A stretch of DNA of 64,000 bases from a virus. The position numbers and the translations under genes are program-made. The DNA lies in the IMG/VR virus record IMGVR_UViG_3300027804_003127. The stretch is one strand, 5' to 3'. The notes beneath the pieces are model-generated. The model was not told the origin of the DNA and did not search any database. It saw nothing but the letters and a program-made list of their open reading frames with translations. Below, in pieces: positions 6,830 to 28,352 of the stretch (positions within the stretch are counted from its first letter, which is position 1; every line of letters begins with the position of its first letter).

Positions 6830-8046
6830 GTTATTTGTTTAATGATCAAGTCGCTTTTAGAGGTGATGCCATAGATGCATTCGGTAGGCTTAAAGTAAGT
6901 CAGCCATTTACTCTTTTTGATTCTCAACACAGGTATCAAGAAAATGACAAATGGGATACTTCAACATCCTCAGGGGGTTCAACTTCATACGCAACAAATG
7001 AAAGTTGCATAAACGTATCTGTTACTACAGCTTCTGGATCTAAGGTAACTAGAGAAACAAAAAGGGTATTTCCATATCAGCCAGGCAAATCATTATTAAT
7101 TTTTAATACTTTTGTATTTGCTCCTAAGAAGACAAATTTAAGACAACGTATTGGATATTTTGGCACTCAAAATGGCATATATTTAGAGCAAAGTGATAAT
7201 ACGGTATACCTTGTTTTGCGCACATATACAGGTGGATCTGTTGATGACACTACGTATAGAGTTGCCCAGTCTTCTTGGAATGGAGATAGGTTTGATGGTA
7301 CGGGTTCTAGTGGAGTCACATTAGATTTTACGAAGGCTAATATTTTTTGGATAGATATTGAATGGCTTGGTGTTGGTGATGTCAGGGTTGGTTTTGCTGT
7401 TAATGGAAGACCTGTGGTTGCACATACGTTTTATAATGCAAATCTAAGAACTACCACATATATGACTACCGCATCTTTGCCACTAAGATTTGAGATAGAA
7501 AATACAGGTACAACGGATTCCGTTTCATCTGCAAAGCATATATGTAGTAGCGTAATGTCAGAAGCTGGCTACGAAGGGTTTAGTAGAAGATTTAATGTTA
7601 CAAAAAATGGATCAACTGCAACTACCTTAACTACAGGTGGGACTCAGTATCCAATGGTTTCTGTTAGACTTAATTCTAGTCGTCTTGATTCTATAATAAT
7701 ACCATCTAATATAAGTTGCGTTCTTGAAGAAACCACTAGTAATAAGCCTGATACTGTTTTATATAGAATATTACTTAATCCCACATTAACCAATGCAAGC
7801 TGGTCAACTCACTACAATGGAAACGTTGATTATGACATAAGTGCAACAGCTGTTTCTGGTGGTACTGACATAATAGGTGGATATATAAGCAGTAGCGGAA
7901 GTCTTTCAGTTTCTAATATAAATGACTTTAATTTCCAGATTGGTAGAACACAGGCTGGTGTAAGTGATGTTTTTACTCTTACTTTTACACCAGTGAATGC
8001 AGGAGCAAAAGTATTTTGTGATTTATCCTGGTTTGAAATAGTATAA
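6826..8046 (+). CDS. Conserved phage virion protein (DAFGRLxVS.P.TLFDS family), probable beta-sandwich/lectin-like fold
   Basis: ORF 6814..8046; likely start MSYLF at 6826 overlapping the previous stop. Confidence 0.65.
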   Translation: MSYLFNDQVAFRGDAIDAFGRLKVSQPFTLFDSQHRYQENDKWDTSTSSGGSTSYATNESCINVSVTTASGSKVTRETKRVFPYQPGKSLLIFNTFVFAPKKTNLRQRIGYFGTQNGIYLEQSDNTVYLVLRTYTGGSVDDTTYRVAQSSWNGDRFDGTGSSGVTLDFTKANIFWIDIEWLGVGDVRVGFAVNGRPVVAHTFYNANLRTTTYMTTASLPLRFEIENTGTTDSVSSAKHICSSVMSEAGYEGFSRRFNVTKNGSTATTLTTGGTQYPMVSVRLNSSRLDSIIIPSNISCVLEETTSNKPDTVLYRILLNPTLTNASWSTHYNGNVDYDISATAVSGGTDIIGGYISSSGSLSVSNINDFNFQIGRTQAGVSDVFTLTFTPVNAGAKVFCDLSWFEIV

Positions 8047-8082
8047 AATAGGAAATATATAAATATATAAATATAATATATT

Positions 8083-8580
8083 ATGCCATTAATTAATTTT
8101 CCATCATCTCCTTATACAGGTCAAACATACACTTTCAATGGTAGAACATGGGAGTGGAATGGGTACGCATGGGATGTAGGTGTTGCAATTTCTGGAGGAG
8201 GTGGCGGTGGCGGCGCGGATTATCTTTCCGATTTAAATGACGTAGAATTGCTAGACCCGTATGTCGGACAGGCTTTGGTGTATAACGGAGCATACTGGGA
8301 AAACGAATATGTTGTTAACACAGTAAACGGAATAAATGGTGATGTAGTAGCTCTTTCAGATATGCCTACAGTCATCTCAGGTGTAAATTTTGATGCTAAC
8401 TTAGGTACAATATCAAATTTAAATATAATTCAAGGTAATAATGGTTCTTCAAGTGTTTTAACTATCATTGGAGATTTAATTGTAACAGGAAATATTACTG
8501 CTACAACTCCAGGCACTACTATAGAGGGTGATACGATAGATACTAATCTAGAAGATATAGACGGAGGAACTTACGCTTGA
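8083..8580 (+). CDS. Tail-fibre-associated protein
   Basis: INFPSSPYTGQTYTFNGRTWEWNGYAW, LSDLNDV repeat, C-terminal IDGGTYA. Confidence 0.7.
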   Translation: MPLINFPSSPYTGQTYTFNGRTWEWNGYAWDVGVAISGGGGGGGADYLSDLNDVELLDPYVGQALVYNGAYWENEYVVNTVNGINGDVVALSDMPTVISGVNFDANLGTISNLNIIQGNNGSSSVLTIIGDLIVTGNITATTPGTTIEGDTIDTNLEDIDGGTYA

Positions 8581-8622
8581 TTCAGGTAGAAAGATAAGTT
8601 AAAAAAGCAAATAGGAGTAAAC

Positions 8623-11616: not shown

Positions 11617-11703
11617 TAAAACAATTAAATACAATTAAAAATAAAATAGAAATCTCAAAAATTTCTATTTTATTTTTTGAGTCGATATAAGTATGGAGGT
11701 AAA

Positions 11704-11895
11704 ATGGAAGAAAAACTAGAATTTTATGAAAAATTTCTCGTACCAGTTTTAAAGAAAAAAATATATGACGTTCAGTCTATACTGTCTGATTTAGAAGCTC
11801 ATGTTCTTTTTTTAAAAGATAAGGTTTCTGCTTTGCAGTCTGAAAATGAAAGTATAAAATCTAAAATAAATTCACCTGGAGATTCTTATGAATAA
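11704..11895 (+). CDS. Small coiled-coil protein (possible fibre chaperone), paralog of the next gene
   Basis: GGAGG RBS before ATG 11704; FYEK.L.P.LK.K...SDLEAH.L. Confidence 0.65.
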   Translation: MEEKLEFYEKFLVPVLKKKIYDVQSILSDLEAHVLFLKDKVSALQSENESIKSKINSPGDSYE

Positions 11896-12163
11896 TGACA
11901 ATTCTTCAGAGTCGATTAGATTTTATGAAAGAGCTCTTATCCCGCTATTAAAATCTAAAAATGCAGAGATGTCTATAGCGATTAGTGAGCTTGAATCTCA
12001 TATATTACTTAAAAATAATAAAATTCAAGAACTGGAAAAAAGAGTAAAACAATTAGAAACAAAAAACAATTTTTATGAATCATCTATAAAATCAGAAAAG
12101 GTTAATGAGATAATAATTGAAGATATAAATACCTCATCTAAAAAAAGATCAAAAAAAGTGTGA
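11888..12163 (+). CDS. Small coiled-coil protein, paralog of the previous gene
   Basis: FYER.L.P.LK.K...SELESH.L. Confidence 0.65.
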   Translation: MNNDNSSESIRFYERALIPLLKSKNAEMSIAISELESHILLKNNKIQELEKRVKQLETKNNFYESSIKSEKVNEIIIEDINTSSKKRSKKV

Positions 12164-12172
12164 TATAATTGA

Positions 12173-14080
12173 ATGGCGACTAATCCAACAATAAAACCAA
12201 GGAGAGGTACTGCTGCTCCTGGAACTGGTTCTATAAGCCAAAATGAATTAGCTGTAGATACAACTAATAAGAGGATATATATTGGTGCAGCAGATGGCTC
12301 TGGAACCTTAATAGGCTCTGCTCCTGGTGGATCTGACACTCAGGTTCAATTTAACGACGGCGGTAATCTTGGTGGTGACTCTGGTCTTACATATAACAAG
12401 ACAACAGATACTTTGATAGCAGGCAGGGTAGAAACAACAGGATTTGAAGCAAAAACCGTTGGCGGTGATGAAGGTGGAGAAATATTATTAGGAAAGGCTG
12501 TAACAAATACTACTCTAACTGGAACTGGTGTTACCATTGATGTCTACCAGAATAGGCTAAGGTTCTTTGAGCAAGGTGGAACAGCCAGAGGCGCATATAT
12601 TGATATTAGTGCTGCAGGCGCAGGGGTTAGTACCAATTTAATAGCAAGCAGTGCCAGTCCTGGTGGTTCAGACACCTATGTGCAGTTCAACGATGGAAGC
12701 ACTTTTGGTGGCGATGCAGGTCTTGTTTATAACAAGACGACAGACGCGCTCACGATGCTTGGAGATCTCAACCTTAACGGCGGAGGAATAAAGACAAACC
12801 AAGGAACAATATCAATAATTCCAGCTACGGCAACTACCGTGAATTTTGCAGGTGCTGCCACCTCGCTTAATCTTGGAACTACCTCTGGCACTGCAACGAT
12901 AAGCAATCCAACACTTGTGGGTACCCAGTCAACCCAGTCCATTTACAACACAGTTGCCACAACTGTAAATTTTGCAGGTGCTGCAACAAGCATCACCATG
13001 GGAGCTACTACAGGTACTTCAAGTATAAGAAATCCGACTCTGCGTCTTGGTAACACTACTGGCACGATTTCAACAAACAGCGGAACTAGCAATTCCCTTA
13101 CTATCTCTCCCTATGGAAGTTTCATAGTATCTCCCACAACCTCTTCCCCTTCGGCGGGCGGATCGTATACAACATTAAATATAACAAATAGTGATGGAGG
13201 TCTTGGTCAAGTTCAGATAGCTGGAGGAGATCTGTACATAGGCTCAAAGACAGATGTATCAGAGGCGGGGCAGTCAGGTAATATAATTTTTGAAGGCGTC
13301 GATGATGCCAATGAACTTACTCTGACCGTCGCATCTCTTACTGCCGATAGGACAGTGACGCTGCCCGATGGAACAGGAACTCTCGCTCTTCTGGGAACTG
13401 GATCTACCACTGACGGAAGGATACCTTACTACGACACTACAACAAATACATTTTTGGGAGCTTCTGCGCTATCGTACAACGATGGAACTGCAACCCTTAC
13501 TTTGGATGCACATATAACAATTGGCGGAACTATAGGAACAACCAACAGTACTGTAAGCCTTCTTAATACTACTGCCACTACTATAAATTTCGGTGGTGCA
13601 GCTACAACATTCAACATAGGTGGAGCTTCATCTGCAACCATCAACTTAGGAAAGACAGATGGCACAACCATAGTGGACATGAACTCGTGCGTGCTGCGTG
13701 AAGTAGAGATGAGAAGTTACTTTGAGACAGAGGGTACAGCAACCTACACAGGGGGCATGACCCAAAACCTGTCTTTCGACCTGAGCACAGGAAATGTATT
13801 TGTGTATACAACCACAGGAGCAATAGCTACATTTACCGTAACCAACATACCTTCAAAGGCTAATACTGCAGTAGGCTTCACTGTTGTGCTTACATGTGGA
13901 AATTCTCTATATTCTGTTACATTTGATTCCTTTACTTCTGGTTCTGGTGTACCAGTATGGGCAGGTGGAACGCCTCCGACAGCCTCTAGTACCGTGGGAA
14001 GGACAGATATCGTTTCTTTTGTAACATATGATGCTGGCACCACATGGTACGGCATGGTCGGAGGTTTGAATTTCTTCTAA
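12173..14080 (+). CDS. Tail fibre protein
   Basis: [12 protein letters not shown]...NELAVDT anchor domain, two PGGSDTxVQFNDG repeats, C-terminal DLSTGNVF...WAGGTPPT...GTTWYG domain. Confidence 0.8.
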
Positions 14081-17000
14081 TGGTTGGCGGATTAACAGCT
14101 AAAATAGCTGCACTTGCATCTAAAGCTCCACCTATTGTAATAGTAAGAAAACTATTTGCTTGGGGAAACAATTTTAGTGGAGCTTTAGGTCTTGGTGATA
14201 CAATTAATAGATCATCTCCAGTTCAAGTTGGAGCTAACACTGACTGGTCAGTATTAGCTTCTGGCAATCGTTTTAGTTTAGCCATTACAACAACAGGCAC
14301 TCTTTGGTCTTGGGGTAGAAATAATTATGGTCAATTAGGTTCAGGAAATACTACATATAGATCTTCTCCTGTACAAGTAGGCGCTGGCACTGACTGGTCA
14401 AATGTATCTACTTTTTATAATCATTCGCTAGCAATCAAGACAACAGGGACTCTTTGGGCTTGGGGGGCAAATGGTAGTGGACAGTTAGGTTTAGGCAATA
14501 CTACAAGTAGATCTTCGCCTGTACAAGTAGGTACTGACACTAACTGGTCAAATTTCTCTGCTGATTATTCTCACACTTTGGCAATCAAGTCAACAGGCAC
14601 TCTTTGGTCTTGGGGTAGAAATCATTATGGTCAATTAGGTTCAGGAAATACTACAGATAGATCTTCACCTGTACAGGTAGGTACTGACACAAATTGGAGT
14701 TTAGTTTCTTGTGGCCAGCATGCTTCATTTGCAGTTAAAACTGATGGTACTCTTTGGGCTTGGGGTAGAAACAGTTATGGTCAATTAGGTTTAGGTAATA
14801 GTACAAATAGGTCTTCTCCTGTACAAGTAGGCGCTGGCACTAACTGGTCAAAAATTTCTTCTGCGACTCGTCATGCTCTTGCAGTTAAAACTGATGGTAC
14901 TCTTTGGGCTTGGGGTAGAAATAATTATGGACAGTTAGGTTTAGGCAATGCTGCAAATAGATCTTCTCCTGTACAAGTAGGCACTGACACTAACTGGTCA
15001 AAAATTTTCGGATTACAAGATACTTCTTTTGTCATTAAAACAACAGGTAGTCTTTGGGCTTGGGGGAGAAATAATTATGGTCAAATTGGAAACGGTTTTA
15101 GTATTGTTACTGCAGTCAGCTCTCCAGTTCAGATAGGGTCTGATACTAATTGGTCTTTTGCTGATGTTAGTTCTAGTGTTTTAGCAATAAAAAACACAGG
15201 TACTCTTTGGTCTTGGGGGCAAAATACTAGTGGACAGTTAGGTTTAGGCAATGCTGCAAATAGTTCTTCACCTGTACAGGTAGGTACTGACACTAACTGG
15301 TCAAAAGTTGATATAAGTAGATATCATACTCTTTCCATAAAAACTAATGGCACATTATGGTCTTGGGGGCAAAATACATATGGTCAGTTAGGTTTAGGTA
15401 ATACTACAAATAGATCTTCTCCAGTCCAAATAGGTACTGACACTAACTGGTCAAATGTATCTGCTGGTAGGCGTTTTTCTTTAGCAATAAAAACTACAGG
15501 ATCTTTGTGGGCATGGGGCTTTAATGATAATGGCTATCTTGGTGTTAATGACATTACACGTAGATCTTCGCCTGTACAAGTAGGCACTGACACTAACTGG
15601 TCTGTTGTATCTTCAGGATATAGACATTCATTAGCAGTTAAAACTAATGGAACTCTTTGGGCTTGGGGTAGAAATACTTACGGAAAATTGGGTATAGGAT
15701 CTAGTGAACTTGTTTCAGTTTCATCTCCTATTCAAGTCGGATCCAGTACGGATTGGAGTAAAGTGTTTGCAGGAGGTGTAACGGGGACTAGTTTTGGAAT
15801 CAAGACTACAGGTACATTATGGGCATGGGGCTCTGGATCAAATGGAAAGCTTGGTCTTGGAAATACTTTAGATAGAGAAAGTCCTGTCCAAATTGGTTCT
15901 AGTTCCGATTGGGCTGATATAAGTGCTGGTTATTCAACAATGGCGAGGAAGACTGGAGGTTCCATATGGGCTTGGGGAAGTAACAGCTTTGGAACTTTAG
16001 GAGTTGGAGACACTACATATAGGTCTTCCCCAGTGCAAATAGGGGCATTAACAGATTGGGCTATGGTTGTTGGAGGTAGGTTACATTCAGCCGCTATAAA
16101 AACAACAGGTACTCTTTGGACTTGGGGTGGTGCATATGATGGAGCTTTAGGCAACGGTTCTGCCACAGGTCAAAGGAATAGTCCTGTCCAGATAGGTGCG
16201 CTAAATAATTGGTCAAAAGTAGCTTGTGGATGGCAGCATTGTTTGGCAGTTAAAACTGATGGTACTCTTTGGGCTTGGGGTAGAAACAGTTATGGTCAAT
16301 TAGGTTTAGGTAATACTACAAATAGATCTTCGCCTGTACAAGTAGGCACTGACACTAACTGGTCAAATGTTTTTTGTGCACGTGTAGGCTTTAGTTGTAT
16401 GGCAATAAAAACTAATGGCACATTGTGGTCTTGGGGGAATAATAGTAGAGGACAGTTAGGCTTAGGTAATACTGTAAATAGATCTTCGCCTGTACAAGTA
16501 GGCACTGACACTAACTGGTCAAAAGTTGCTATGGGCGGAAGAGACCCGATAACGGCTGGATATCATACCGTTGCTTTAAAAACTAATGGAACTCTTTGGG
16601 CTTGGGGTAGAGGCACTTATGGTCAATTAGGTTTAGGTAATACTGCATATAGATCTTCTCCTGTACAAGTAGGTACTAGTACAAACTGGAGCGATGTCGC
16701 AGCTGGATGTCATAGTTTATTTTTAAATACAAGTGGTAATCTATTTTCTACAGGAAGTAATTCTAATGGTCAGTTAGGGGTTAGTAAAAATAATGCAATT
16801 TCGCCTGTTCAGATAGGCTCTGATACAGACTGGTCAAAAGTTGCTGCGGGATTCAATCATTCATTAGCAATCAAGACAACAGGAACTCTTTGGGCTTGGG
16901 GTAGAAATAATAGTGGTCAGTTAGGTTCAGGTAATACTACATATAGATCTTCTCCAGTACAAGTAGGTACTGACACTAATTGGCAAAAAATAAATGCTAG

Positions 17001-17352
17001 TTATAATGTTAATACTTCGCTTGCAATCAAGACAACAGGATCTTTATTTTCTTGGGGAGTAAATACTAGTGGACAGTTAGGTTTAGGCAATACTACAAGT
17101 AGATCTTCGCCTGTACAAGTAGGCGCTGACACTAACTGGAATTATGCATTTGCTGGCACTAATAATCAAATTGCTTTAAAAACTTCTGGATCTATGTGGG
17201 GATGTGGGTCTAATTTATATGGAGTTGCATTAGGTTTTTTAAATAACAATTTGTCTTCACCAGTACAGATAGGATCTGATACTAATTGGAGTTCAATTGC
17301 TACTCAAGGTATATCTAGCTTTACTCTTGGAATAACCGAAAACATATCATAG
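14080..17352 (+). CDS. RCC1/BLIP-II repeat beta-propeller protein (21 repeats), probable receptor-binding adhesin
   Basis: 21 copies of [32 protein letters not shown]; start ATG overlaps the upstream TAA (TAATG). Confidence 0.9.
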
Positions 17353-17388
17353 GCAAATTTTCTTAGCCTATATCAAGGGAATAAATCT

Positions 17389-19173
17389 ATGATATACTTT
17401 TTAAGTGGATTACCGCGTAGTGGCTCTACTGTTTTATCAGCAATACTTAATCAAAATCCAAAAATATATTCAACAGCAACTAGTGGTTTAATCGAGTTAT
17501 TAGGAGCCGTATGTTTGACGTGGGAAAATTCTCCAACAACAAAGGCTAGCGGCGAAGATGAAGCAGAAGCATATCGAATGCTTAAATCTGTGATAGCAAG
17601 TAAATATGAAAATATAAAAAAACCAATTATAATAGATAAAAATAGAGGTTGGGTTAATCCTCAAATTATAGAAACTATGACGAATGTTCTTGGATTTAGT
17701 CCAAAAATTATAGCCACTGTAAGATCAACATCTGACTGCGCAGCTTCTTTTATTCGAGTCGCTAAGCCAGAAAATGTTTCAGATTTTCTTAGAAATTCAT
17801 CTTTAATTCAACACCTTAAATCTTCATATGCTGAATTAAAACAAGGCTATCATTCGTGTCCAGAAAATATACTATTTATAGATTATGACGATTTACTTAA
17901 AAATCCGCAAGAACAACTAGATAAAATTCATAATTTTCTGGGCATAGAGCCATTTATTTATGACTTTAATAATATAGACACTGAGATTGTTTCAGAACAA
18001 GATGAATTAGCTTGGGGGGTTTCTGGTCTTCACAAAATTTCACCTCAATTAAAAAAACAGCATAATGAAAATTCAAAAGATATACTTGCGCAGCATTTTG
18101 ATAGCTATGATCAGCCAAAATTTTGGAAAGGAGAAGAAAGAGTAGATAAGAAGAAAAAAATTGATATATCAGTTGAACTTTCTATGAGGGGCAATTTTGA
18201 AGAATCTTACAAGGTTTTATGTGAAGCTCAAAATGAAAATCCACTATGTAATAAAATAGCATTTAATATGGGTTGGTATGCATTAAGACATAATAAGTTG
18301 CAAGAAGGAATGGAAAATCTTGCAAAGGGTAGATTTGAGAATTGTTTTGGAAATAAAAAACCAAATGTGCCTACTCCCATATGGGATGGTAAAAAAATAG
18401 GCACAGTGTTATATTATCTTGAGGGAGGTCTTGGTGATCAAATACATGCCTTAAAATATATTAAAGATATTAATAAAAGAGGATGTGATGTAATAGTGGC
18501 GTGTTCAGCAGAATTATTTCCCATAGTAAGGTGTTGTGTAGGAGTAAAAATGATTATTGAACACGCAGCCGCAGGTGGTGTGTATCATGACTTTTGGTGT
18601 CCAGCAATGTCAGTATTAATACCTCTTGGATATGAGTATAAAGACATAGATGGAACTCCGTATATTTCAAAAACAAATAGTCCAAAAAATAAAATTCCAG
18701 TTATTGGGGTGCGTTGGCAGGGTAATCCTAAATTTGAGCATGAACAAAATAGAAAGTTTCCATTAGATCCTTTTTTTGATTCTCTTAAAAACGTAGAAGC
18801 AAATTTTGTATGTCTTCAAAGAGATGAAGGCGAGGAGCACTGTCCAGAATTTATTAAAAAGGTACCATTAAATACATGGGGACAAACTAGAGATGTTATG
18901 TCTAGTTGTGATCTCGTTATTTCTTCATGTACAAGTGTTGCGCATCTTTCTGGGGCAATGGGGGTAGAAACGTGGATAATAGTCCCAGTATTAAATTACT
19001 ATATATGGTCTTTTCCAGGAGATAAAAGTCCATATTACGATTCCGTAAGATTATTTAGGCAAAAAACTTTTGGATGTTGGGACAATCCGATCATGGAATT
19101 AAAAAAGTCATTAGAAACAAAATTTGGTATTAAAAATAAAGGGAATAAGCTATGCAAAAATATGTTAGAATAG
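17389..19173 (+). CDS. Sulfotransferase - TPR - GT9-like glycosyltransferase fusion
   Basis: PAPS motif GLPRSGST, IIDKNRGW; helical TPR-like linker; EGGLGDQI and CDLVISSCTSVAHLSGAMG (GT-B/GT9-like). Confidence 0.8.
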   Translation: MIYFLSGLPRSGSTVLSAILNQNPKIYSTATSGLIELLGAVCLTWENSPTTKASGEDEAEAYRMLKSVIASKYENIKKPIIIDKNRGWVNPQIIETMTNVLGFSPKIIATVRSTSDCAASFIRVAKPENVSDFLRNSSLIQHLKSSYAELKQGYHSCPENILFIDYDDLLKNPQEQLDKIHNFLGIEPFIYDFNNIDTEIVSEQDELAWGVSGLHKISPQLKKQHNENSKDILAQHFDSYDQPKFWKGEERVDKKKKIDISVELSMRGNFEESYKVLCEAQNENPLCNKIAFNMGWYALRHNKLQEGMENLAKGRFENCFGNKKPNVPTPIWDGKKIGTVLYYLEGGLGDQIHALKYIKDINKRGCDVIVACSAELFPIVRCCVGVKMIIEHAAAGGVYHDFWCPAMSVLIPLGYEYKDIDGTPYISKTNSPKNKIPVIGVRWQGNPKFEHEQNRKFPLDPFFDSLKNVEANFVCLQRDEGEEHCPEFIKKVPLNTWGQTRDVMSSCDLVISSCTSVAHLSGAMGVETWIIVPVLNYYIWSFPGDKSPYYDSVRLFRQKTFGCWDNPIMELKKSLETKFGIKNKGNKLCKNMLE

Positions 19174-19559
19174 AAAATAATGAGGTAAAAGAATGTGTAG
19201 ATAGTCTTCCAGAAAATGCAGTTGGTGATTGGAGAATTGCTATAGAGATAGATGCAGAAATAATTCAAAATAGACAAATTAGAAGTGGACACTACTTTGA
19301 TATTAATAAAAGTCCAGTTGAGATAGTCTGGACTGCCATTGATCTAACAATAGAAGATAGAAAAGAATATATTCTTCAACAGTTAAATCAAAAGTTTTAT
19401 AAAATTGTTAGCGAAGAATTATTAAAAGAATTTAGTGGTCAAGATTCTAATTTTTTACTTGTTCAATCATCAATACAGACGTATAGGGAAAAACGTATAG
19501 AAATAAATTCACTAACTACACATGAAGAAATAGATGTATTTATGTCAGAAAACGTTTAA
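19152..19559 (+). CDS. Hypothetical protein, possibly tail fibre assembly
   Basis: Operon position; MQKYVRIEN...LPEN...W pattern. Confidence 0.55.
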   Translation: MQKYVRIENNEVKECVDSLPENAVGDWRIAIEIDAEIIQNRQIRSGHYFDINKSPVEIVWTAIDLTIEDRKEYILQQLNQKFYKIVSEELLKEFSGQDSNFLLVQSSIQTYREKRIEINSLTTHEEIDVFMSENV

Positions 19560-19560
19560 T

Positions 19561-20940
19561 ATGAGAATAGTATTTTCAATTATACATAATGGCTTGCACC
19601 ATTTATTACATAATAATCAATATGCAGCAATCATTTCTAACTGTGATTTTTGGATAGTGGTTGAAGGAGCTTCTCTTTCAAATAATAGCACAAAATGGTG
19701 TAAAGAATTTCCTTTAGAATTTCATAGTAACGGAAAAAGCATAGATGGGACTACCTGCTTTTTTGAAAATTTATGCTTAAGTAGTAATAAGATTATCTAT
19801 ATTCCATCTAATGGTTTTTGGCATTCAAAAGATCACCAAGTCAATAGAGCTATAGAAGAAGTAAAGAAGATAACTAACAAATGTTTTCTATGGGAAATAG
19901 ACATAGATGAGCAGTGGACTTCTGACCAGATGGACAAGGCTGAAGAAGAGTTAGTTGCTTCTAAAGCCAAGTCTGCATGCTTCAGGGCTGAATGCTTTAT
20001 TGGAAAGAATCTCAGGGCAATTGGTGACTGGGGTGAGGCATTCACTAGTGGCTACACCAGGCTTTGGAATTGGGAGGGCGAGTATTTTTTATGCCATGAA
20101 CCTCCAGTTCTGGAGGGAGAGTTAGGAAAAGATCCAGTGATGCTTTCTCCCGTGTTTAAACATTATAACTATTATTTTGACAAAGATGTAATGTTTAAGG
20201 ACAAGTGGTATGGTGGACATGATCAAATATATGAAAGATGGAAGCTTATTAATTCACTTGATAAGAGATTTTTTCCAATGCATATATCCAATTTGATAAC
20301 TGGTCCTTGGGGAAATTCAAATAGTTCAATAATATATGTTGAGCCTAATGGAAAGAAGAAGTTGATTCAGATTGGCGCAAATCGTGGTTACGACCATGTA
20401 TTTGAAATAACAAAACATAATAAACATAAATGCATATTGGTTGAACCTAATAAATACTTAATTGATAATTTAAAAGATTGCTATAAAAACTGTGATAATA
20501 CTACTATAGAAAATTGCGCAATATCTACATTTGATGGAAGTATTGATATGTATTTTAATGATATGGAGGATGGATATTCTTCTCATAGTTCTCTTTCTTT
20601 AAGTCATGTGTTAGATCATAATAATAAAAAAGAGAATATAATAAAGAGTAATGTTCCATGTATGAAATTAGAAAGCCTTATACAAAAGCATGGTTGGACT
20701 AATGACGAAATAGAATGGTTGTTTGTAGATGCAGAAGGTCATGACTGCGATATCATCCTATCAACAGATTTCAGTAAACTTGATATTAAAAATGTTTTTT
20801 TTGAAACAGTTCATTCGGATGGTCCATTTAAACAAGGTGAAAAACTACAGAAAACAATAGATTGGCTTATGTCTTTTGGATATTTGATAAATGCAAAAAA
20901 GACAACAGATGAATCCAATTTAGCACTATCAAAGATATGA
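19561..20940 (+). CDS. Glycosyltransferase-like domain fused to FkbM-family methyltransferase
   Basis: N-terminal GT-A-like DIDE; C-terminal IQIGANRG, LVEPN, VDAEGHD. Confidence 0.75.
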   Translation: MRIVFSIIHNGLHHLLHNNQYAAIISNCDFWIVVEGASLSNNSTKWCKEFPLEFHSNGKSIDGTTCFFENLCLSSNKIIYIPSNGFWHSKDHQVNRAIEEVKKITNKCFLWEIDIDEQWTSDQMDKAEEELVASKAKSACFRAECFIGKNLRAIGDWGEAFTSGYTRLWNWEGEYFLCHEPPVLEGELGKDPVMLSPVFKHYNYYFDKDVMFKDKWYGGHDQIYERWKLINSLDKRFFPMHISNLITGPWGNSNSSIIYVEPNGKKKLIQIGANRGYDHVFEITKHNKHKCILVEPNKYLIDNLKDCYKNCDNTTIENCAISTFDGSIDMYFNDMEDGYSSHSSLSLSHVLDHNNKKENIIKSNVPCMKLESLIQKHGWTNDEIEWLFVDAEGHDCDIILSTDFSKLDIKNVFFETVHSDGPFKQGEKLQKTIDWLMSFGYLINAKKTTDESNLALSKI

Positions 20941-21674
20941 AAGATATACTTGTAATTGGAGATTCTTGTCTCGATATATTTGTTTATTGCGACGCAAACA
21001 GGCTTTGCCCTGATGTCCCAGTACCTGTTTTGAATTATTGCTATCAGACTGAAAACCCAGGCATGGCAAAAAATGTTCAAAGAAACATTGAATCTTTAGG
21101 TATATCGTGTGATATAATTACTAATTCAAATTGGCATGAAATGAAGAAGGTAAGATATGTCCATAAGGACAGTAATCATTATTTTTTTAGACTGGATTCT
21201 GAGCCTTCGATAGAAAAAATTCATATTAACAATATTAACTTAGATTATAAGATGATAGTTATATCTGATTACAATAAGGGCTTTATTTCTGAGGAAGACA
21301 TTGAGAGTATATGTTTAAATCATAGTTGTGTTTTCATAGACACTAAAAAAGTCATAGGTAGTTGGATAGACGGTGCAAAAATTATAAAGATAAACAACAA
21401 AGAATACAATGCATCTAAAAATTATATTGATAAAAAATTACGTGATAAAGTTGTTAGAACTATGGGTTCATTAGGTGCAGAGTATAAAAGTACAATTTAT
21501 CCAGTTACAAAGTCTGAGGTAAGAGATGTTTCTGGAGCAGGTGATTCATTTATGGCTGGACTATGCTTTAAATTTTTAAAAACAGAAGACATAATTGATT
21601 CTATAAAATTTGCCAATCAATGTGCTTCTGAGGTTGTTAAGTTTAGGGGAGTGACGACAATAAAAGAACTATGA
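20937..21674 (+). CDS. rfaE1: D-glycero-beta-D-manno-heptose-7-phosphate kinase (HldE kinase domain, PfkB family)
   Basis: LVIGDSCLD..Y...RLCPDVPVPV, ISDYNKG, RDVSGAGDSF. Confidence 0.85.
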   Translation: MKDILVIGDSCLDIFVYCDANRLCPDVPVPVLNYCYQTENPGMAKNVQRNIESLGISCDIITNSNWHEMKKVRYVHKDSNHYFFRLDSEPSIEKIHINNINLDYKMIVISDYNKGFISEEDIESICLNHSCVFIDTKKVIGSWIDGAKIIKINNKEYNASKNYIDKKLRDKVVRTMGSLGAEYKSTIYPVTKSEVRDVSGAGDSFMAGLCFKFLKTEDIIDSIKFANQCASEVVKFRGVTTIKEL

Positions 21675-22075
21675 CTAAGGTAGTTTTTACTAACGGTGTT
21701 TTTGATATCATTCATAGAGGTCATATAGAGTTATTAAAATATGCAAAATCATTAGGCGATTATCTTTATGTTGGGATTGATTCTGATAAAAGAGTAAAAT
21801 CTAATAAGGGAGAATCTAGGCCTATCATTAATCAGGAAGATAGAGTTGAAATAGTATCTTCTATTAAGTATGTTGATGGTGTGTATATATTCAATAATCT
21901 AGATGAGCTTGCTGAATTGCACGCTAAAATATCTCCAGATATTTTGGTTAAGGGTTCAGATTGGTACGAAAAACAGATAAGAATAAGTGATGGAGTTTTG
22001 CCTAAAACAAAAATAGTAATATTTAATAGATTGGGTAATTATTCAACAACAAATATAATAAAAAAAATAAAATGA
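21671..22075 (+). CDS. rfaE2: Heptose-1-phosphate adenylyltransferase (HldE nucleotidyltransferase domain)
   Basis: TNGVFDIIHRGH (HxGH), KGESRPI, PDILVKGSDW, YSTTNII. Confidence 0.85.
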   Translation: MTKVVFTNGVFDIIHRGHIELLKYAKSLGDYLYVGIDSDKRVKSNKGESRPIINQEDRVEIVSSIKYVDGVYIFNNLDELAELHAKISPDILVKGSDWYEKQIRISDGVLPKTKIVIFNRLGNYSTTNIIKKIK

Positions 22076-22974
22076 TAGCAGTAACTGGAGCAAGTGGTTT
22101 TATTGGAAGTGTATTATTGAAAACCCTAAATGAAAAAGGGATAGAAGATATCGCTTTAATAGATGATTTTGAAATAAACAAAAAACTTGGTTATGCTTCA
22201 AGGGCAAACTATACTTATTTACAGAACAAAAAATTCAAAGAAATAATACCGATTAATTTTGATTATTCAATCTTATTTGAAAATAATAAAATTGATTTTA
22301 TATTTCATTTGGGAGCTATTTCTAATACTTTAGAAAAATGTTCAGATAGAATTTATAAATATAACACATTTTATACAGAATTGGTTGCAAGATACGCTAG
22401 GGAGAATAATGTTCCAGTTATTTTTGCTTCTTCTGCTTCGGTATATGGCAATGGAGACGGTCCATTAAACGACTATGCAAGATCCAAGCTAGAGTGCGAA
22501 AGGTCGCTGGAAGGCTTGGCGTGTTGTTTTAGGATATTTAATGCTTATGGTCCAAACGAATATCATAAGGAAGAAATGTCTTCTGTTATACTAAAGTGGT
22601 TTAGGCAAAATCTTAAAGAGGGTTCAATAAAGCTTTTTGAAAGATCTGATCTATATATTAGAGATTTTATTTATGTGCAAGATATTTGCGATGCAATGTA
22701 TAATTGTTTTAAAAATTATAAAACTGGAATTTTTGATTTAGGTTCTGGGTGTTCTGTAAGTTTTGATTATTTGGCCGATTGTTTTTTAAATAAAATATCA
22801 TCAAAAAAAGAAATTATAAAAATGTCTAATCAATTATCAAAACAATATCAACCATACACAAAGTCTGATATAAGTGGGGTAACTAAAAACGGATGGATAA
22901 TCAATTCAATAAGTATTGAAAATGGGATTGATTTGTATCTAAAATATTTAATAAACAATGAGCAGGTAATTTGA
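22072..22974 (+). CDS. hldD: ADP-L-glycero-D-manno-heptose 6-epimerase-like extended SDR
   Basis: VTGASGFIG, FHLGAIS, ASSASVYG, YARSK (YxxxK), FNAYGPNEYHKxxMSS, RDFIYV. Confidence 0.85.
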   Translation: MIAVTGASGFIGSVLLKTLNEKGIEDIALIDDFEINKKLGYASRANYTYLQNKKFKEIIPINFDYSILFENNKIDFIFHLGAISNTLEKCSDRIYKYNTFYTELVARYARENNVPVIFASSASVYGNGDGPLNDYARSKLECERSLEGLACCFRIFNAYGPNEYHKEEMSSVILKWFRQNLKEGSIKLFERSDLYIRDFIYVQDICDAMYNCFKNYKTGIFDLGSGCSVSFDYLADCFLNKISSKKEIIKMSNQLSKQYQPYTKSDISGVTKNGWIINSISIENGIDLYLKYLINNEQVI

Positions 22975-23342
22975 TGAATATTGATAATTTGCAAAGCGAA
23001 GAGGTAGAAAAGAAATGGGGCAAGGAGATAATAATAGTAAACAATGATAAATATTGTGGTAAAATATTATGTCTTAAAAAAGACAAAAAGTTTAGTATGC
23101 ATTATCATATGATAAAAGATGAAACTTGGTATGTAATTTCTGGTGAACTAATTTTAAAATGGATAGATACTAGCAGTGCAATTCAAAACGAGAAAAAAAT
23201 AAAAAAAGGCGATATCATAAGAATAATGCCAGGATTACCTCATCAGTTAATGGCCTGTGTTGACTCTGAAATTTTTGAAATTTCTACTACTCATTACGAT
23301 AATGATAGTTACAGGGTATTCAAAGGAGACAGTCAATTATGA
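22971..23342 (+). CDS. Cupin (mannose-6-phosphate isomerase type II-like)
   Basis: KKWGKE, FSMHYHxxKDETW, PGLPHQL. Confidence 0.8.
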   Translation: MMNIDNLQSEEVEKKWGKEIIIVNNDKYCGKILCLKKDKKFSMHYHMIKDETWYVISGELILKWIDTSSAIQNEKKIKKGDIIRIMPGLPHQLMACVDSEIFEISTTHYDNDSYRVFKGDSQL

Positions 23343-24259
23343 AATATGTTTTCGATATAGATAATACAATATTATCTACAAAAGGAAACGACTATCAAAA
23401 TAGTGTTCCAATACAGCACAGAATAAACTACGTCAATAAGTTATATAATGAGGATAATTATATAGTTTTATACACTGGAAGAGGTACAAGAAGTGGAGTA
23501 AACTACGAAGATCTTACCAGGATGCAGATGGAAAAATACGGTGTAAAATATCATGAATTAATTATGGGTAAAATGGATTATGATTATTTTGTTGACGATA
23601 AGGCTGTATCTTTAAAAGAGTTAGATAGTATAATAAGTTTAAATAAGAGCTCTTCAAATTATAAGTCAAGTTTTGATTCAGGATACAACTTTGATGATTA
23701 TAAAAGATTTCAATCACTAAAATCAATTAAATATAAGTCAGTGCTTGACATTGGTTCTGGTCCGTGCATGCTTTTAAGATGGTTAAAGAATAATCAAATA
23801 AAAGCCTCATATGAGGCTATGGATATTAGAGAAGATGCTTTATCTGAATGTGATTGCCAAACACATAATAACATTGATATGACTAAAAAATACGATTTAG
23901 TATGTTTGTTCGGTGTTTCTGATTATTTTAAAACTAATGAAGATGAAAAAAAGGAAGAGTTTTTAAATTTGCTTACTAATGCAGTTAAAAAATCTAAAAA
24001 GTATGTGATATACAGTCTAATGAGAAAAGACAATATTCTTAATAAACTTGTTAAATATAGTCTAGATGAAGCTAAGAGTGTTGCTGCAAAAGCTGGACTA
24101 GAAATAACTGAGATAGATTTAGACTCCGAACCAACTGAATATATTATCACATGTACAATCAATAAGGAAAAAAATGTCAAAAAAACAAAAAAAACAGATA
24201 GTAAACCAAGGTCTTCAAAAGGCAAAAAAAAGAGTAATGATAGCCACTCCGTCATATGA
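23339..24259 (+). CDS. HAD-family phosphatase fused to class I SAM methyltransferase
   Basis: FDIDNT (DxD), YTGRG, GKMDYD.FVDDK; second half SVLDIGSGP. Confidence 0.75.
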   Translation: MKYVFDIDNTILSTKGNDYQNSVPIQHRINYVNKLYNEDNYIVLYTGRGTRSGVNYEDLTRMQMEKYGVKYHELIMGKMDYDYFVDDKAVSLKELDSIISLNKSSSNYKSSFDSGYNFDDYKRFQSLKSIKYKSVLDIGSGPCMLLRWLKNNQIKASYEAMDIREDALSECDCQTHNNIDMTKKYDLVCLFGVSDYFKTNEDEKKEEFLNLLTNAVKKSKKYVIYSLMRKDNILNKLVKYSLDEAKSVAAKAGLEITEIDLDSEPTEYIITCTINKEKNVKKTKKTDSKPRSSKGKKKSNDSHSVI

Positions 24260-24887
24260 CGGAAGGGTTGATGCTTGGTATTCAAATAGTGTGTTGATGG
24301 CTGATAGAGCTTGTAGGGACCTAGGAATAGAATTAGACCCCATATATGTATGTTATGATGCAATAGTTTCAAAAGCTAGGAATGACTTGTTTGCCTATGC
24401 TTTTAGGCATGACTTTGACGAATTAGTTTATGTAGATGCAGACATTGCTTGGGGTCCTGATCAGTTGCTTAAACTATTAAGTCATCCTGTTGATGTTGTT
24501 GGAGGCATATATCCTAAAAAAACTCCACAAGAGGATTACCCTGTAAATTTTATTTCTGACAAAATAAAGCTTCAAGATGGGTTGTTAGAGGTAGCTAGTT
24601 TACCAACTGGTTTTTTAAGAATATCCAAACAAGCTATAAAAATATTTTGGGAAAAATCTTCTAGTTATACGGTGAACAAAGAAAACGAAGAATATAAAAT
24701 GGTTTTTGAGCCTGGCATCGTTGGTGGCAGATTTATTAGCGAAGACATAATATTCTGTTTAAAATGGAGAGAATGGGGATATAAGGTCTATTTAGACCCA
24801 TATATTAAATTAAATCACATAGGGCCAAATGTATATAGTGGTAACATAGTTAATTTTATGAAAAATAATTTTAGTATAGATTTATAA
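24174..24887 (+). CDS. GT-A fold glycosyltransferase (phage type)
   Basis: VMIATPSYDG, KARN, YVDADI (DxD), GGIYPKK, PTGFLRI, SEDIIFC..W. Confidence 0.8.
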   Translation: MSKKQKKQIVNQGLQKAKKRVMIATPSYDGRVDAWYSNSVLMADRACRDLGIELDPIYVCYDAIVSKARNDLFAYAFRHDFDELVYVDADIAWGPDQLLKLLSHPVDVVGGIYPKKTPQEDYPVNFISDKIKLQDGLLEVASLPTGFLRISKQAIKIFWEKSSSYTVNKENEEYKMVFEPGIVGGRFISEDIIFCLKWREWGYKVYLDPYIKLNHIGPNVYSGNIVNFMKNNFSIDL

Positions 24888-24925
24888 ATTTAGGGAAAAA
24901 TGCAATAGTTATATAAATAAAATAT

Positions 24926-25309
24926 GTGGAATATTTATATCATATTTTAATACCTAAAAATTTTGCAGAAAAAGTGAATGATTGCTTTAAAAACATTAGC
25001 AATTGTATAGATTCTCCATTTAAGTATAAAATATCAACTAGAATAAATGGAGATCACAGTTATACTGGTGCGTATGGTCTTTCTGAGGATGACATAAAAA
25101 TATTTAGAGTTATGTTTGAGCTTAATGAAGATGGGATTTATTGGTGGAAAGTAGATAAAAATACGGGCATATTAGATGAGTGTAATGACGCTGACTGTTT
25201 ATGCTATGTAGGTGACAAGTATTCTATGAAGTTTTTATTAAGAAGGTCTGGTTTCTATTTAATCGGAGAAAATGATGGCGAAAGCTGGTCGTCCAAAAAA
25301 ACCGAATGA
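24926..25309 (+). CDS. Hypothetical protein
   Basis: ORF in operon context. Confidence 0.55.
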   Translation: MEYLYHILIPKNFAEKVNDCFKNISNCIDSPFKYKISTRINGDHSYTGAYGLSEDDIKIFRVMFELNEDGIYWWKVDKNTGILDECNDADCLCYVGDKYSMKFLLRRSGFYLIGENDGESWSSKKTE

Positions 25310-28300
25310 TTTACATTTTGATTTAGAAAATTTAAAACAAGCTGTTAAAAATGTCACGCTTACCGCTAGTGACGCTGGTCATGTTCCAAGTATAATTGAA
25401 TTTGTTGAATCAGAAAAATATTTGGGTCTTCCTCATCAAAAGCCCACTTCTATAGATCTTTATCCATTTCAGCGTATTATGTTGAAATGCTTTTACTCTG
25501 GAAGTGTGGGAAATGAACATATGACACTAACAGATGAAGAAAGGCAACTGTGCAAAAAATACAACCTTTTAGATGAAGACATTAGCGATATATTTTCTAA
25601 AATAGATAATGGAGTTATAAAAAGTGAGATGGTTCTTGTATGGGGTCGTCGTTGCTTGTCAGAAGATAATAATATAGTAGACATTAATACAAATAGAATT
25701 TATACATTTGGTTCAATGTGGGATTCTGGAAAGAGAACAATAGACTCATGGACTTATAATGAAAAAAGTAAGAGAATGGAATGTGTGTCTAATTGCGATA
25801 TTGTATATCAGGGAATAAGAGATGTATATAAAGTGCAAACTTATAGTGGTCATTTTATAGAGGCTACATCAAATCATCCTGTACTGACATCAAATGGGTG
25901 GAAGCAGATTAAAGATCTGGACACTGATAATGATATGATATCAATTAGCGAGTCTTTTCCATTTGGTTTAGAAGTAAAAACCGAAATGACGGAAGAACAA
26001 GCAAGACTTATAGGATATATGATAGGTGATGGAAACTGTTCAAAAGCTGCAACATTTTTGACTTGTTCAAATAAGTCCGTATTGAAGGATTTCAAAGTAT
26101 GTTTGAGCTCACTGGGCGATAACATAAAAATTTTCAAAGATCCATGGACTGGAGCAAAAAGCAAAAAATATCAATATAAAATAACTTCTAAGTATTATGA
26201 AAACGAGTCTTTAGGAGTAAAAGATTATAGAAACAGAACTTTAACTCGTAGAAAAAAGAATTTACTCATGCAGCTTTTGGTGCAGTATGGTATAAGCGGT
26301 AAAACATGTCATCATAAAAGAACTCCAAAAGAAATACTCGAAGCACCTAAAAATGTCGTCTCTAATTATTTGAAGGCTTTATTTAGCTGTGATGGGTCTA
26401 TTTATATTAAAAAGAGAAAAAAATATGTCAATCATTGTCAAATAGAATTTTGCACCGTAAATAAACAACAGGCTTATGATGTTCAGTATTTACTAAGTAA
26501 ATTTGGGATATTATCAAACCTAAGGTCAAAATCTGGAAAAACTTCCATAGTGGATGAAAAGCATAATAAAAGAACTTATCGCTCAAATTCTTATGTTGTG
26601 TCTTTTGTTCGTAAGAAGTATATAAGTATATTTTTACAAGAAATAGGGTTTATTGGTAAAGATAAAATAGTTAAATTATGTGAGTCTACGTTAAGTAAGA
26701 TAATTGATAAAGATTCAAACCATGATAGCTCATTACCGTACTCATGTTTTAATATAAAATCTATAGAGCATATTGGTAAAAAAAGAACATTTGATTTGCA
26801 AGTGAGTGATCAAAAGCATTTGCAAAATTTTGTAAGTCAGGGATTCATATGTCACAATAGCGGCAAAGATTTCATTGTTTCAATATTAGCATGCTACGAA
26901 GCTGCGAAGCTTCTTGAATCTCCAAATGGAGATCCCTACAAGTTATATAACTTAGGATCTGGAGCCCCATTTACTATATTGACAGTGGCGAATAGCTCTG
27001 CTCAGGCTCAAGTTTTATTTAATGAAATAAAAGATAAAATAATAAAAAGTACATATTTTGCTGACAAGATAGTCGCAGATGGCATACTTGCAGATCAAAT
27101 ACATCTTTTAACTCCTGCTGATAAAATAAAGAATGCAGAATTAGCTTCTAGGGGTCTTCCTACCAGTCCTGGGTCTGTTATAATAAGATGTGGACACAGC
27201 AACTCGGACTCTCTTGCAGGTATATCTTGTTATTGCCTTTTATTAGACGAAATTGGATTGTACAAACAAACTGCTGGCAGCAGTGGAGGAGAAAGTATAT
27301 ACAGAACTCTTGCTCCAGCGACTTCCACTTATGTAAGAAAAGAAAAATACATAGATCCTTATGGAGAAGAAAAAAATAAAGATGTATATGATGGTAAGAT
27401 AATCTGCATTAGTTCTCCTCGTGGCAAAGAAGGTGTGTTTTATGAATTGTATAGAAAGGCATCTTCTGTTTCTCATAGGGTTATGTGTAAGTTGCCAACA
27501 TGGGTCGTTAACCCTAATCAGACACAAGAATTGTTGCGCCAAAAGTTCAGTAACATGACTGAAGAAGAATTTATGATGGAGTTTGGTGCAGAATTTAGTG
27601 GAACTGCTGGTCAAACTTTCTTTACTAGAGACATGGTAGAAAAGTCATTTGTTAATAATTGCAGATTCAAGGAGCATGGTGAGCCAGGATTTAGCTATTT
27701 TTGTCATTTGGATCCAGCAACTTCTTCGCACAACTACGCTTTATGTGTTCTTCATAAAGAATCATATCTTAATAAAGATACTAACAAAATGGATTTTAAA
27801 ATTATAGTAGATCATGTGAAGTATTGGCAGCCACTAGAGGGTAGGCCTATACTAAACGAAGAAGTTGACAATTATATAATCATGTTAAGCAGAAGATTTA
27901 ACTTTGAGCTAGTTACATTTGATCAATGGAATTCTCAACATAGTATAGATCATTTGCAAAAGCATAGTATACCTGCAAAAATGACTAGATTTACAAAAAG
28001 ATACAAAATAATTATATATGATAATCTTTACGATTTAGTATCGGCCAATAGAATGCAAATTCCAGCTCACGCTTTATTGCATGATGAAATGTTGTATCTA
28101 CAAAGAAGATATACAGCAACAGGATATAAGGTTTTTGCTAAAAAAGACGGATTAGTTAAAACTGATGACGTTGTAGATGCTCTTGCTGGAGCATCCTATG
28201 CGTGTTTAAATGAAGGTAGTACTAGGCTTCCACAAGGAAGATTAGCTAGAATGTCGGTAACTCCATTTGGAGATGGAGTTGTTTTTAGAGGCATGCAGGG

Positions 28301-28352
28301 ACAGCCTTTAAATGATTTTATGGATAGATCAAAATGGACAAAGAGGTTCTAA
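25272..28352 (+). CDS. terL: Terminase large subunit (intein-containing)
   Basis: YPFQ Q-motif, Walker A GRR|SGK split by the intein, Walker B LLLDE, ISSPRG, RNase H-like HLDPA, FDQWNS, TDDVVDALAG. Confidence 0.9.
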   Translation: MMAKAGRPKKPNDLHFDLENLKQAVKNVTLTASDAGHVPSIIEFVESEKYLGLPHQKPTSIDLYPFQRIMLKCFYSGSVGNEHMTLTDEERQLCKKYNLLDEDISDIFSKIDNGVIKSEMVLVWGRRCLSEDNNIVDINTNRIYTFGSMWDSGKRTIDSWTYNEKSKRMECVSNCDIVYQGIRDVYKVQTYSGHFIEATSNHPVLTSNGWKQIKDLDTDNDMISISESFPFGLEVKTEMTEEQARLIGYMIGDGNCSKAATFLTCSNKSVLKDFKVCLSSLGDNIKIFKDPWTGAKSKKYQYKITSKYYENESLGVKDYRNRTLTRRKKNLLMQLLVQYGISGKTCHHKRTPKEILEAPKNVVSNYLKALFSCDGSIYIKKRKKYVNHCQIEFCTVNKQQAYDVQYLLSKFGILSNLRSKSGKTSIVDEKHNKRTYRSNSYVVSFVRKKYISIFLQEIGFIGKDKIVKLCESTLSKIIDKDSNHDSSLPYSCFNIKSIEHIGKKRTFDLQVSDQKHLQNFVSQGFICHNSGKDFIVSILACYEAAKLLESPNGDPYKLYNLGSGAPFTILTVANSSAQAQVLFNEIKDKIIKSTYFADKIVADGILADQIHLLTPADKIKNAELASRGLPTSPGSVIIRCGHSNSDSLAGISCYCLLLDEIGLYKQTAGSSGGESIYRTLAPATSTYVRKEKYIDPYGEEKNKDVYDGKIICISSPRGKEGVFYELYRKASSVSHRVMCKLPTWVVNPNQTQELLRQKFSNMTEEEFMMEFGAEFSGTAGQTFFTRDMVEKSFVNNCRFKEHGEPGFSYFCHLDPATSSHNYALCVLHKESYLNKDTNKMDFKIIVDHVKYWQPLEGRPILNEEVDNYIIMLSRRFNFELVTFDQWNSQHSIDHLQKHSIPAKMTRFTKRYKIIIYDNLYDLVSANRMQIPAHALLHDEMLYLQRRYTATGYKVFAKKDGLVKTDDVVDALAGASYACLNEGSTRLPQGRLARMSVTPFGDGVVFRGMQGQPLNDFMDRSKWTKRF
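25653..26858 (+). mobile_element. Intein (402 aa) with LAGLIDADG homing endonuclease
   Basis: N-junction R|CLSED, block B ATSNHPV, LIGYMIGDG and LKALFSCDG, C-junction FICHN|S. Confidence 0.93.

Follow-up and report, generated by a model that had tools for sequence, protein, structure and literature searches.

A predicted glycan synthesis and modification cassette beside an RCC1-repeat adhesin gene in an uncultured aquatic phage

This report concerns a run of nine genes (p1 to p9, positions 17389-24887) in a 64,000-nucleotide (nt) stretch of IMG/VR record IMGVR_UViG_3300027804_003127, an uncultured water phage; the whole stretch is referred to as the window, and all positions are window positions. 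Several described systems resemble parts of this cassette. Bacteria make ADP-L-glycero-beta-D-manno-heptose through GmhA, HldE (or HldA and HldC), GmhB and HldD. Heptose genes are also known, at the level of annotation, beside fibre genes in marine phages: heptose and rfaE lipopolysaccharide (LPS) genes have been listed in cyanophages and pelagimyophages, often in a fibre-associated hypervariable region, and modification of the host O-chain has been proposed as their role (PMC7378029, PMC7029224). The autotransporter heptosyltransferases TibC and AAH have a GT-B fold related to glycosyltransferase family GT9, and their genes adjoin those of the repeat-rich surface adhesins TibA and AIDA-I, which they modify. 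In Caulobacter crescentus, the flagellin O-glycosyltransferase FlmG binds its substrate through a tetratricopeptide repeat (TPR) part and glycosylates it with a C-terminal GT-B domain (PMC7591256). For mycobacteriophages, phage-encoded glycosyltransferases are thought to decorate the phages' own structural proteins (PMC11256854), though fold, sugar and target differ from those considered here, and sugar supply, sulfation and methylation are not described there.

We predict with moderate confidence that the nine genes are a late-operon glycan cassette, which makes a nucleotide-heptose and attaches, methylates and sulfates the sugar, the most likely acceptor being the RCC1-repeat adhesin encoded directly upstream. 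What is observed is the gene content, the folds, the conserved catalytic motifs and the synteny; the substrates, the roles of the cupin and HAD proteins, the nucleotide and the acceptor are what we infer from them. Every gene that an earlier reading of this DNA (the original prediction) had listed after the fibre and RCC1 genes is present where it had been placed, on the + strand and with overlapping starts and stops. The nine open reading frames (ORFs) form one run with overlaps of 4-26 nt, and include p2, which was absent from the earlier list.

The RCC1 adhesin gene, the p1 fusion and p2

The genes and domains at the centre of the prediction are the following (aa, amino acids; PAPS, 3'-phosphoadenosine 5'-phosphosulfate; TPST, tyrosylprotein sulfotransferase; pLDDT, predicted local distance difference test).

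14044..17352, + strand: RCC1-repeat propeller protein, 1102 aa, candidate substrate or partner of the cassette (PHROG RCC1 families, E 1e-158)
17389-19173, + strand: p1, sulfotransferase-TPR-GT9-like fusion (Sulfotransfer_3, E 2e-14; model pLDDT 88.5)
17389..18135, + strand: p1 N-terminal domain, aa 1-249, PAPS-type sulfotransferase closest to TPSTs (PF13469, TPST fold)
18157..18339, + strand: p1 linker, aa 257-317, four helices, TPR-like (secondary structure of the model)
18400..19173, + strand: p1 C-terminal domain, aa 338-580, GT-B glycosyltransferase of GT9 (heptosyltransferase) type (fold and profile-profile match)
19152..19559, + strand: p2, 135 aa, tail-fibre assembly chaperone-like protein, DUF4376/Tfa-like fold (model and BFVD matches)

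The strongest linkage in the region is that between these three genes. We surveyed 80 IMG/VR loci that encode a homologue of p1 (46-77% identity), on contigs of 4.6-177 kb that include 96%-complete 61-kb phages. In 71 of the 73 loci whose upstream sequence is long enough, the p1 homologue begins 9-125 bp after the end of an RCC1 gene; when homologues are grouped into clusters at 90% identity, the RCC1 neighbour is found in 38 of 39 clusters and p2 accompanies p1 in 36 of 39. The stable unit is therefore the RCC1 adhesin, the sulfotransferase-TPR-GT9 enzyme and the fibre chaperone-like p2, and the synteny gives strong support to one option of the original prediction, that the system decorates an adhesin. 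The heptose supply, p3, p8 and p9 are accessories in the window's clade, two members of which (L094 and L095) keep the whole cassette, up to the terminase, in a changed gene order; a close relative (L003) has the heptose genes directly upstream of the fibre genes.

The N-terminal domain of p1 belongs to Sulfotransfer_3 (PF13469, 54.6 bits, cut-off 27), and its model is closest to TPST1/2 (Z 18.6-19.3, compared with about 14 for heparan sulfotransferases). The PAPS motifs are intact, with both the 5'-phosphosulfate-binding motif PRSGST and the Arg/Ser of the 3'-phosphate-binding motif aligning to TPST. The Glu-Glu position of the TPST 'CGEET' stretch, whose Glu we take to be the TPST catalytic residue, is occupied by Ser/Thr in the p1 family profile; the domain is thus not a TPST proper, and its sulfate acceptor could be a sugar rather than tyrosine. 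A fusion of APS-kinase-like (adenosine 5'-phosphosulfate kinase-like) and HxGH nucleotidyltransferase halves lies near the p1 homologue in 48 of the 80 loci and is absent from the window. One example (L161:14499-15284) has 261 aa, with a P-loop half matching PF01583 (E 3e-9) and an HxGH half, and could be a small PAPS-synthase-like supplier of the donor.

The linker matches TPR_16 in 7 of 29 p1 homologues (best E 1e-4). For the C-terminal domain the closest structures are WaaC (VIA Z 16.6), WaaF (16.0), 3tov (15.6) and TibC (15.1), and these GT9-type chains are the only glycosyltransferases in its top 50 structural matches. A profile of the domain aligned by hhalign to eight bacterial GT9 proteins with 94.3% probability (E 9.5e-8, 195 columns). 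A phmmer search of the PDB with the domain gave no match, and a profile of whole p1 matched only sulfotransferases there. In WaaC, Asp13 is catalytic and Lys192, Asp261 and His266 are heptose ligands (10.1101/2021.06.16.448588). The first corresponds to D350 and His266 to H519 of p1, both invariant, and the position of Lys192 is R455.

The p2 protein gives a confident model (pLDDT 94.6) of a beta-sheet with three helices. Its BFVD matches (E 1e-4 to 1e-2, TM 0.36-0.67) are predicted viral models that go by the names tail assembly chaperone or DUF4376; Foldseek against the PDB returned no match below E 1, and there is no Pfam match.

Since the short TPR of p1, together with p2, would tie the chemistry to the RCC1 propeller adhesin directly upstream, a virion attachment protein is the most likely acceptor. 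The sugar would be transferred by the GT9-like domain of p1 and by the GT-A-like p3 and p9, methylated by p3 (through its FkbM domain) and by p8 (through its methyltransferase domain), and sulfated from PAPS by the TPST-like domain of p1. By analogy, decoration of the adhesin would resemble the action of TibC and AAH on the autotransporters encoded next to them, or that of FlmG on flagellins. The likeness to TibC and AAH is one of fold and gene adjacency, and has its limits: WaaC and WaaF are slightly closer to p1 in structure, p1 has extra sulfotransferase and TPR parts, and its proposed acceptor is a beta-propeller whereas theirs are beta-helices. FlmG and p1 are alike in modular design, but FlmG has a long TPR domain and no sulfotransferase, and the sugar that it transfers is pseudaminic acid. 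With TPST1/2, its best structural match (Z 19.3), the N-terminal domain has the PAPS-binding motifs in common, as opposed to the presumed catalytic Glu.

The invariant residues of p1 also bear on whether it is an enzyme at all. It could instead be a non-catalytic or differently acting factor for assembly of the RCC1 fibre, a pseudo-glycosyltransferase scaffold to which the sugar genes are unrelated neighbours. The chaperone-like gene as its constant partner, the loss of one canonical sugar-binding Asp and the separability of the fusion from the heptose module would all fit such a role. We nevertheless judge it very unlikely, as the catalytic Asp and His and the PAPS motifs, along with many other residues of both domains, are invariant over the 29 homologues, down to 46% identity, as expected of active enzymes, and the window's clade keeps the whole cassette together through its rearrangements.

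The acceptor might also lie on the host. The original prediction had offered remodelling of host LPS as an alternative, and an auxiliary 'LPS gene' cluster altering the LPS core, O-antigen, capsule or S-layer, for instance as a bar to superinfection or to keep released virions from binding the cell again, is possible if somewhat unlikely. The literature gives homologous genes this role (PMC7378029, PMC7029224), most of the structurally solved GT9 enzymes act as LPS heptosyltransferases, and the heptose module is found without the p1 fusion in cyanomyophages and other phages, where it stands among miscellaneous metabolic genes. On the other hand, no obvious membrane anchor was seen on reading the cassette translations, and the cassette lies on the same strand within a structural and packaging block; no promoter or terminator signal rises above shuffle level between the fibre genes, the cassette and the terminase, and no operon boundary is defined. 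Decoration of the adhesin is favoured over LPS remodelling because the stable unit is the RCC1 adhesin with the p1 enzyme and the fibre chaperone-like p2.

A predicted nucleotide-heptose pathway

The middle of the cassette encodes five proteins (SDR, short-chain dehydrogenase/reductase; SAM, S-adenosylmethionine).

20937..21674, + strand: p4, 245 aa, short PfkB kinase of HldE domain I/HldA type (TIGR02198, rfaE_dom_I, E 2e-33)
21671..22075, + strand: p5, 134 aa, nucleotidyltransferase of HldE domain II/HldC type (TIGR02199, rfaE_dom_II, E 6e-39)
22072..22974, + strand: p6, 300 aa, SDR epimerase of HldD (ADP-glyceromanno-heptose 6-epimerase) type (TIGR02197, heptose_epim, E 8e-64)
22971..23342, + strand: p7, 123 aa, metal-binding monocupin, type II phosphomannose-isomerase-like (Cupin_2 and weak MannoseP_isomer matches)
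23339..24259, + strand: p8, 306 aa, small HAD phosphatase of EcbF/BcbF type (aa 1-114), class I SAM methyltransferase (aa 123-236) and Lys/Ser-rich tail (HAD and methyltransferase matches)

The best reading of p4 to p8, going by sequence comparison, is a phage-borne nucleotide-heptose pathway, which partly supports the suggestion of the original prediction that the phage makes its own ADP-heptose. In the proposed route, p7 would isomerise sedoheptulose-7-phosphate to D-glycero-D-manno-heptose-7-phosphate, the p4 kinase would convert this to the 1,7-bisphosphate, the HAD domain of p8 would strip the 7-phosphate, p5 would attach a nucleotide, probably ADP, and p6 would epimerise C6 to give an L-glycero-D-manno-heptose linked to a nucleoside diphosphate (NDP). 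The NDP-heptose so made would be an optional feed for decoration of the RCC1 adhesin. Compared with the bacterial pathway, p4 to p6 are homologous with catalytic motifs kept, and five genes stand for five steps. The phage kinase is shortened and separate from the nucleotidyltransferase, and a phosphomannose-isomerase-like cupin and a small EcbF/BcbF-type HAD would take the places of SIS-type GmhA and canonical GmhB.

TIGR02198 is by far the best family for p4 (116 bits), which matches PDB 4e84, the D-beta-D-heptose 7-phosphate kinase HldA, with E 5e-11 and retains the N-terminal P-x-P-V-P-V lid motif and the catalytic GAGD. For p5, which has the HxGH motif, TIGR02199 scores 133 bits and the next family, of TagD type, 66. 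The p6 protein aligns end to end with Escherichia coli HldD (1eq2, E 6e-36), its top four PDB matches are all HldD, and YxxxK and the second Lys in GP-x-E-x-HK are kept.

The same five families recur in cyanomyophages and IMG/VR phages. In the 'LPS/heptose' module of cyanomyophages (T4-GC 304-308; S-SM2, P-TIM68, P-SSM2, S-CAM1 and others) they are 32-60% identical to those of the window, and form a compact, same-strand set in a hypervariable or fibre region. The window, which comes from a huge non-T4 phage, differs in having its HAD fused to a methyltransferase and its set joined to the p1 and GT-A/FkbM fusions and to an RCC1 adhesin. Around the modules of S-SM2 (L001) and P-TIM68 (L002) lie a transketolase-like protein, a Zn alcohol dehydrogenase and other sugar genes, with a class II aldolase in S-SM2 as well, which suggests a sugar more elaborate than plain heptose.

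The cupin p7 would fill the first step. Its HxH..E..H metal site is intact, and WG, E, YCGK, S-H-x-H, KDE, H-Q and R are invariant over 21 cupins from phages and metagenomes, in what we take to be the arrangement of type II phosphomannose isomerases. Many cupins of the family carry the Joint Genome Institute label mannose-6-phosphate isomerase-like. The conversion of fructose-6-phosphate to mannose-6-phosphate is the same chemistry as that of sedoheptulose-7-phosphate to D-glycero-D-manno-heptose-7-phosphate. By tblastn the kinase occurs in 33 and the cupin in 35 phage records, nearly the same set, made up of Synechococcus and Prochlorococcus myophages and marine single-cell viral contigs.

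A similar pairing is found in many Patescibacteria, in which a cupin of the p7 family adjoins a kinase 51-55% identical to p4, along with a nucleotidyltransferase (loci L018, L021, L022, L029 and L031 among others); in L029 a transketolase-like gene lies about 3.4 kb from the cupin. Kinase identity at this level between phages and Patescibacteria is unusually high and hints at gene exchange or at an origin of the module in Patescibacteria-like organisms. In Binataceae a cupin of the family (43-46% identity) lies between a GT4 gene and one for GDP-mannose 4,6-dehydratase at about 40 loci (for example L053:7971-8333); this is a further setting of manno-sugars, in which the cupin may serve a GDP-sugar cluster as its phosphomannose isomerase.

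The original prediction had seen no GmhA or canonical GmhB, and had asked whether the cupin and HAD domain might replace them. No SIS-type isomerase is present among the cassette proteins, and the HAD of p8 matches the EcbF/BcbF capsule phosphatases (TIGR01689, and PDB 9iqw with E 5e-10) instead of GmhB. No GmhA was found by TIGR00441 in the complete cyanophages S-SM2 and P-TIM68 or in a 92%-complete 320-kb phage, all of which carry the module, and only one weak match, in a 596-aa protein, was found among five Patescibacteria genomes with cupin and kinase; this family model is narrow, since only the E. coli control passes its cut-off, so that a divergent GmhA could escape it. The absence supports a role for the cupin but does not decide it. 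We also considered the claim that cupin-bearing Binataceae and Terriglobia with HldE and GT9 have no GmhA, and dropped it as weak because of short SIS proteins with faint matches, one of them beside a PfkB kinase, and the narrowness of TIGR00441. Judged from its co-occurrence with the kinase, its resemblance to type II phosphomannose isomerases and the lack of GmhA in complete phages with the module, p7 is likely a sedoheptulose-7-phosphate isomerase, and the idea that the cupin and HAD stand in for GmhA and GmhB has gained ground.

The HAD domain of p8 has the DxD motif and belongs to phrog_1238; family matches of the methyltransferase domain are weak. The HAD family is widespread, with 392 phage records including RB69-like phages and T4-like phages of Acinetobacter and Klebsiella, often beside a nucleotidyltransferase gene, and its common label 'phosphoheptose isomerase' looks like a misnomer. 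In S-SM2 and P-TIM68 the HAD bears this wrong name, and the cupin that of 'cysteine dioxygenase'. The occurrence of the HAD next to a nucleotidyltransferase in many T4-like phages raises DNA hypermodification as another use of the sugar, by its transfer to modified bases as in the glucosyl- or arabinosyl-hydroxymethylcytosine of T-even-like phages; the T4-like pairing may serve such DNA modification. We give this explanation hardly any credence: the scan of window genes showed no homologue of a hydroxymethylase or DNA glycosyltransferase, the cassette is linked most strongly to an adhesin and a fibre chaperone, and a sulfotransferase and O-methyltransferases suit the tailoring of a glycan better.

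Donor, product and significance

Several observations weigh against the predicted cassette function. Adjacency to the RCC1 gene is linkage and not proof of modification, and the window covers 64 kb out of the roughly 250 kb of the phage. Of the 27 p1 clusters that have 8 kb of downstream sequence, only 8 have the heptose kinase nearby, and most have none within 10 kb; a 96%-complete 61-kb phage carries the p1 fusion and no heptose kinase, and in another phage of the set the kinase is 45 kb from the fusion. Besides the steady linkage of RCC1, p1 and p2, the survey of loci shows a facultative one to the heptose genes. The fusion itself stands as a sulfotransferase by Pfam and as GT9 by fold and profile-profile comparison, but its TPR amounts to four helices, and the GT9 family PF01075 has no match in the window's p1 at E up to 10 and matches in only 5 of the 29 homologues (best E 0.094). 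The heptose ligand Asp261 of WaaC is replaced in p1 by an invariant Cys, C514. Furthermore, p4 falls about 70 residues short of HldE domain I, and p4, p5 and p6 score below the curated NCBIfam cut-offs (345, 181.5 and 274.6 bits, the last against a score of 215.7), so that they are putative members of the HldE and HldD families. The possible escape of a divergent GmhA belongs with these points.

Because the fusion occurs with no heptose kinase nearby in most clusters, and in a 96%-complete phage, its GT9-like domain may use a donor other than heptose. The step from GT9 to ADP-heptose in the original prediction is, in view of this and of the Asp261 replacement, not secure.

A related question is whether p4 to p8 make ADP-L,D-heptose at all. 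The product could be a heptose linked to CDP or GDP, or else a derivative of a hexose or an octose, with the cupin acting as a metal-dependent epimerase or ketoisomerase on a nucleotide sugar and not as the first isomerase. The scores below cut-off would allow this, as would the cytidylyltransferases among the PDB matches of p5, the other sugar genes in which the S-SM2 and P-TIM68 modules are set, and the GDP-mannose 4,6-dehydratase next to the Binataceae cupin, which makes a nucleotide-sugar role possible too. We consider it decidedly unlikely, since HldA, HldC and HldD are the best matches by wide margins, the cupin keeps the HxH..E..H site and the phosphomannose-isomerase-like WG, K and R and not RmlC-type residues, and the five genes fit the five steps of a heptose pathway.

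Extending the predicted adhesin decoration beyond the window, we propose more tentatively that several kinds of aquatic phages O-heptosylate, sulfate and methylate their RCC1 receptor-binding proteins by means of a p1-like enzyme that docks onto the adhesin along with a fibre chaperone, and that some of them, this phage included, supply the donor through a cupin/HAD heptose pathway. If so, this would be an undescribed virion modification together with an undescribed first-step heptose isomerase, the latter also present in Patescibacteria. Literature searches found no paper relevant to phage, sulfotransferase and RCC1 or to cupin, sedoheptulose and ADP-heptose, and neither the linkage of RCC1 adhesin, enzyme and chaperone nor the idea of the cupin as isomerase was met there. 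Were RCC1 adhesins sulfo-heptosylated, host recognition in a large group of aquatic phages would hinge on a virus-made glycan, one invisible to host-range prediction from sequence and to structure prediction of receptor-binding proteins. A cupin isomerase, if real, would close a gap in heptose synthesis in those phages and Patescibacteria that have HldE-like genes and no GmhA, and would correct two widespread labels, under which the cupin is a 'cysteine dioxygenase' and the HAD a 'phosphoheptose isomerase'.

Further transferases and the surrounding DNA

Two more proteins of the cassette are putative transferases.

19534..20940, + strand: p3, 468 aa, GT-A-like N-terminal domain and FkbM-family methyltransferase (PF05050, E 6e-15, aa 279-451)
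24174..24887, + strand: p9, 237 aa, putative GT-A/Anp1-like glycosyltransferase (phrog_1574, E 5e-23; leads only)

The Atlas structure neighbours of the p3 N-terminal domain carry GT2 and GT17 families, which is a lead only, and those of p9 carry Anp1 and GT2 families at low share; a D-A-D motif is present in p9. The true start of p9 is probably M22 (nt 24237), because the Atlas record of the protein begins at residue 22, and this would reduce its overlap with p8 from 86 to 23 nt. An antisense ORF at 23923-24372, inside p8 and p9, was taken as spurious.

On its 5' side the cassette is preceded by fibre genes and then the RCC1-repeat gene, and on its 3' side it is followed by a 127-aa ORF and then the large terminase. 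The G+C content is 37-43% in the fibre and RCC1 genes (8000-18000) and 28-32% in the cassette (18000-26000), which is near that of the rest of the window. The fibres are rich in Ser/Thr, as the original prediction had it (23-32%, compared with 11-14% elsewhere), but such richness is usual for fibres and was rejected as evidence of glycosylation. Compared by megablast with 50,697 phage records, the region had no near match at the DNA level.

The large terminase (25272-28352) has 1026 aa, with terminase homology only at about residues 480-982. Its residues from about 128 to 520 have a Cys start and a His-Asn-Ser end, and resemble an intein that contains a homing-endonuclease insert. Elsewhere the window encodes a GT4 glycosyltransferase (50292-51659), a subtilase (52884-53714), PhoH (56229-56963) and, at 60489-61544, an actin-like protein of the Volactin family (PF25216, E 3e-56).

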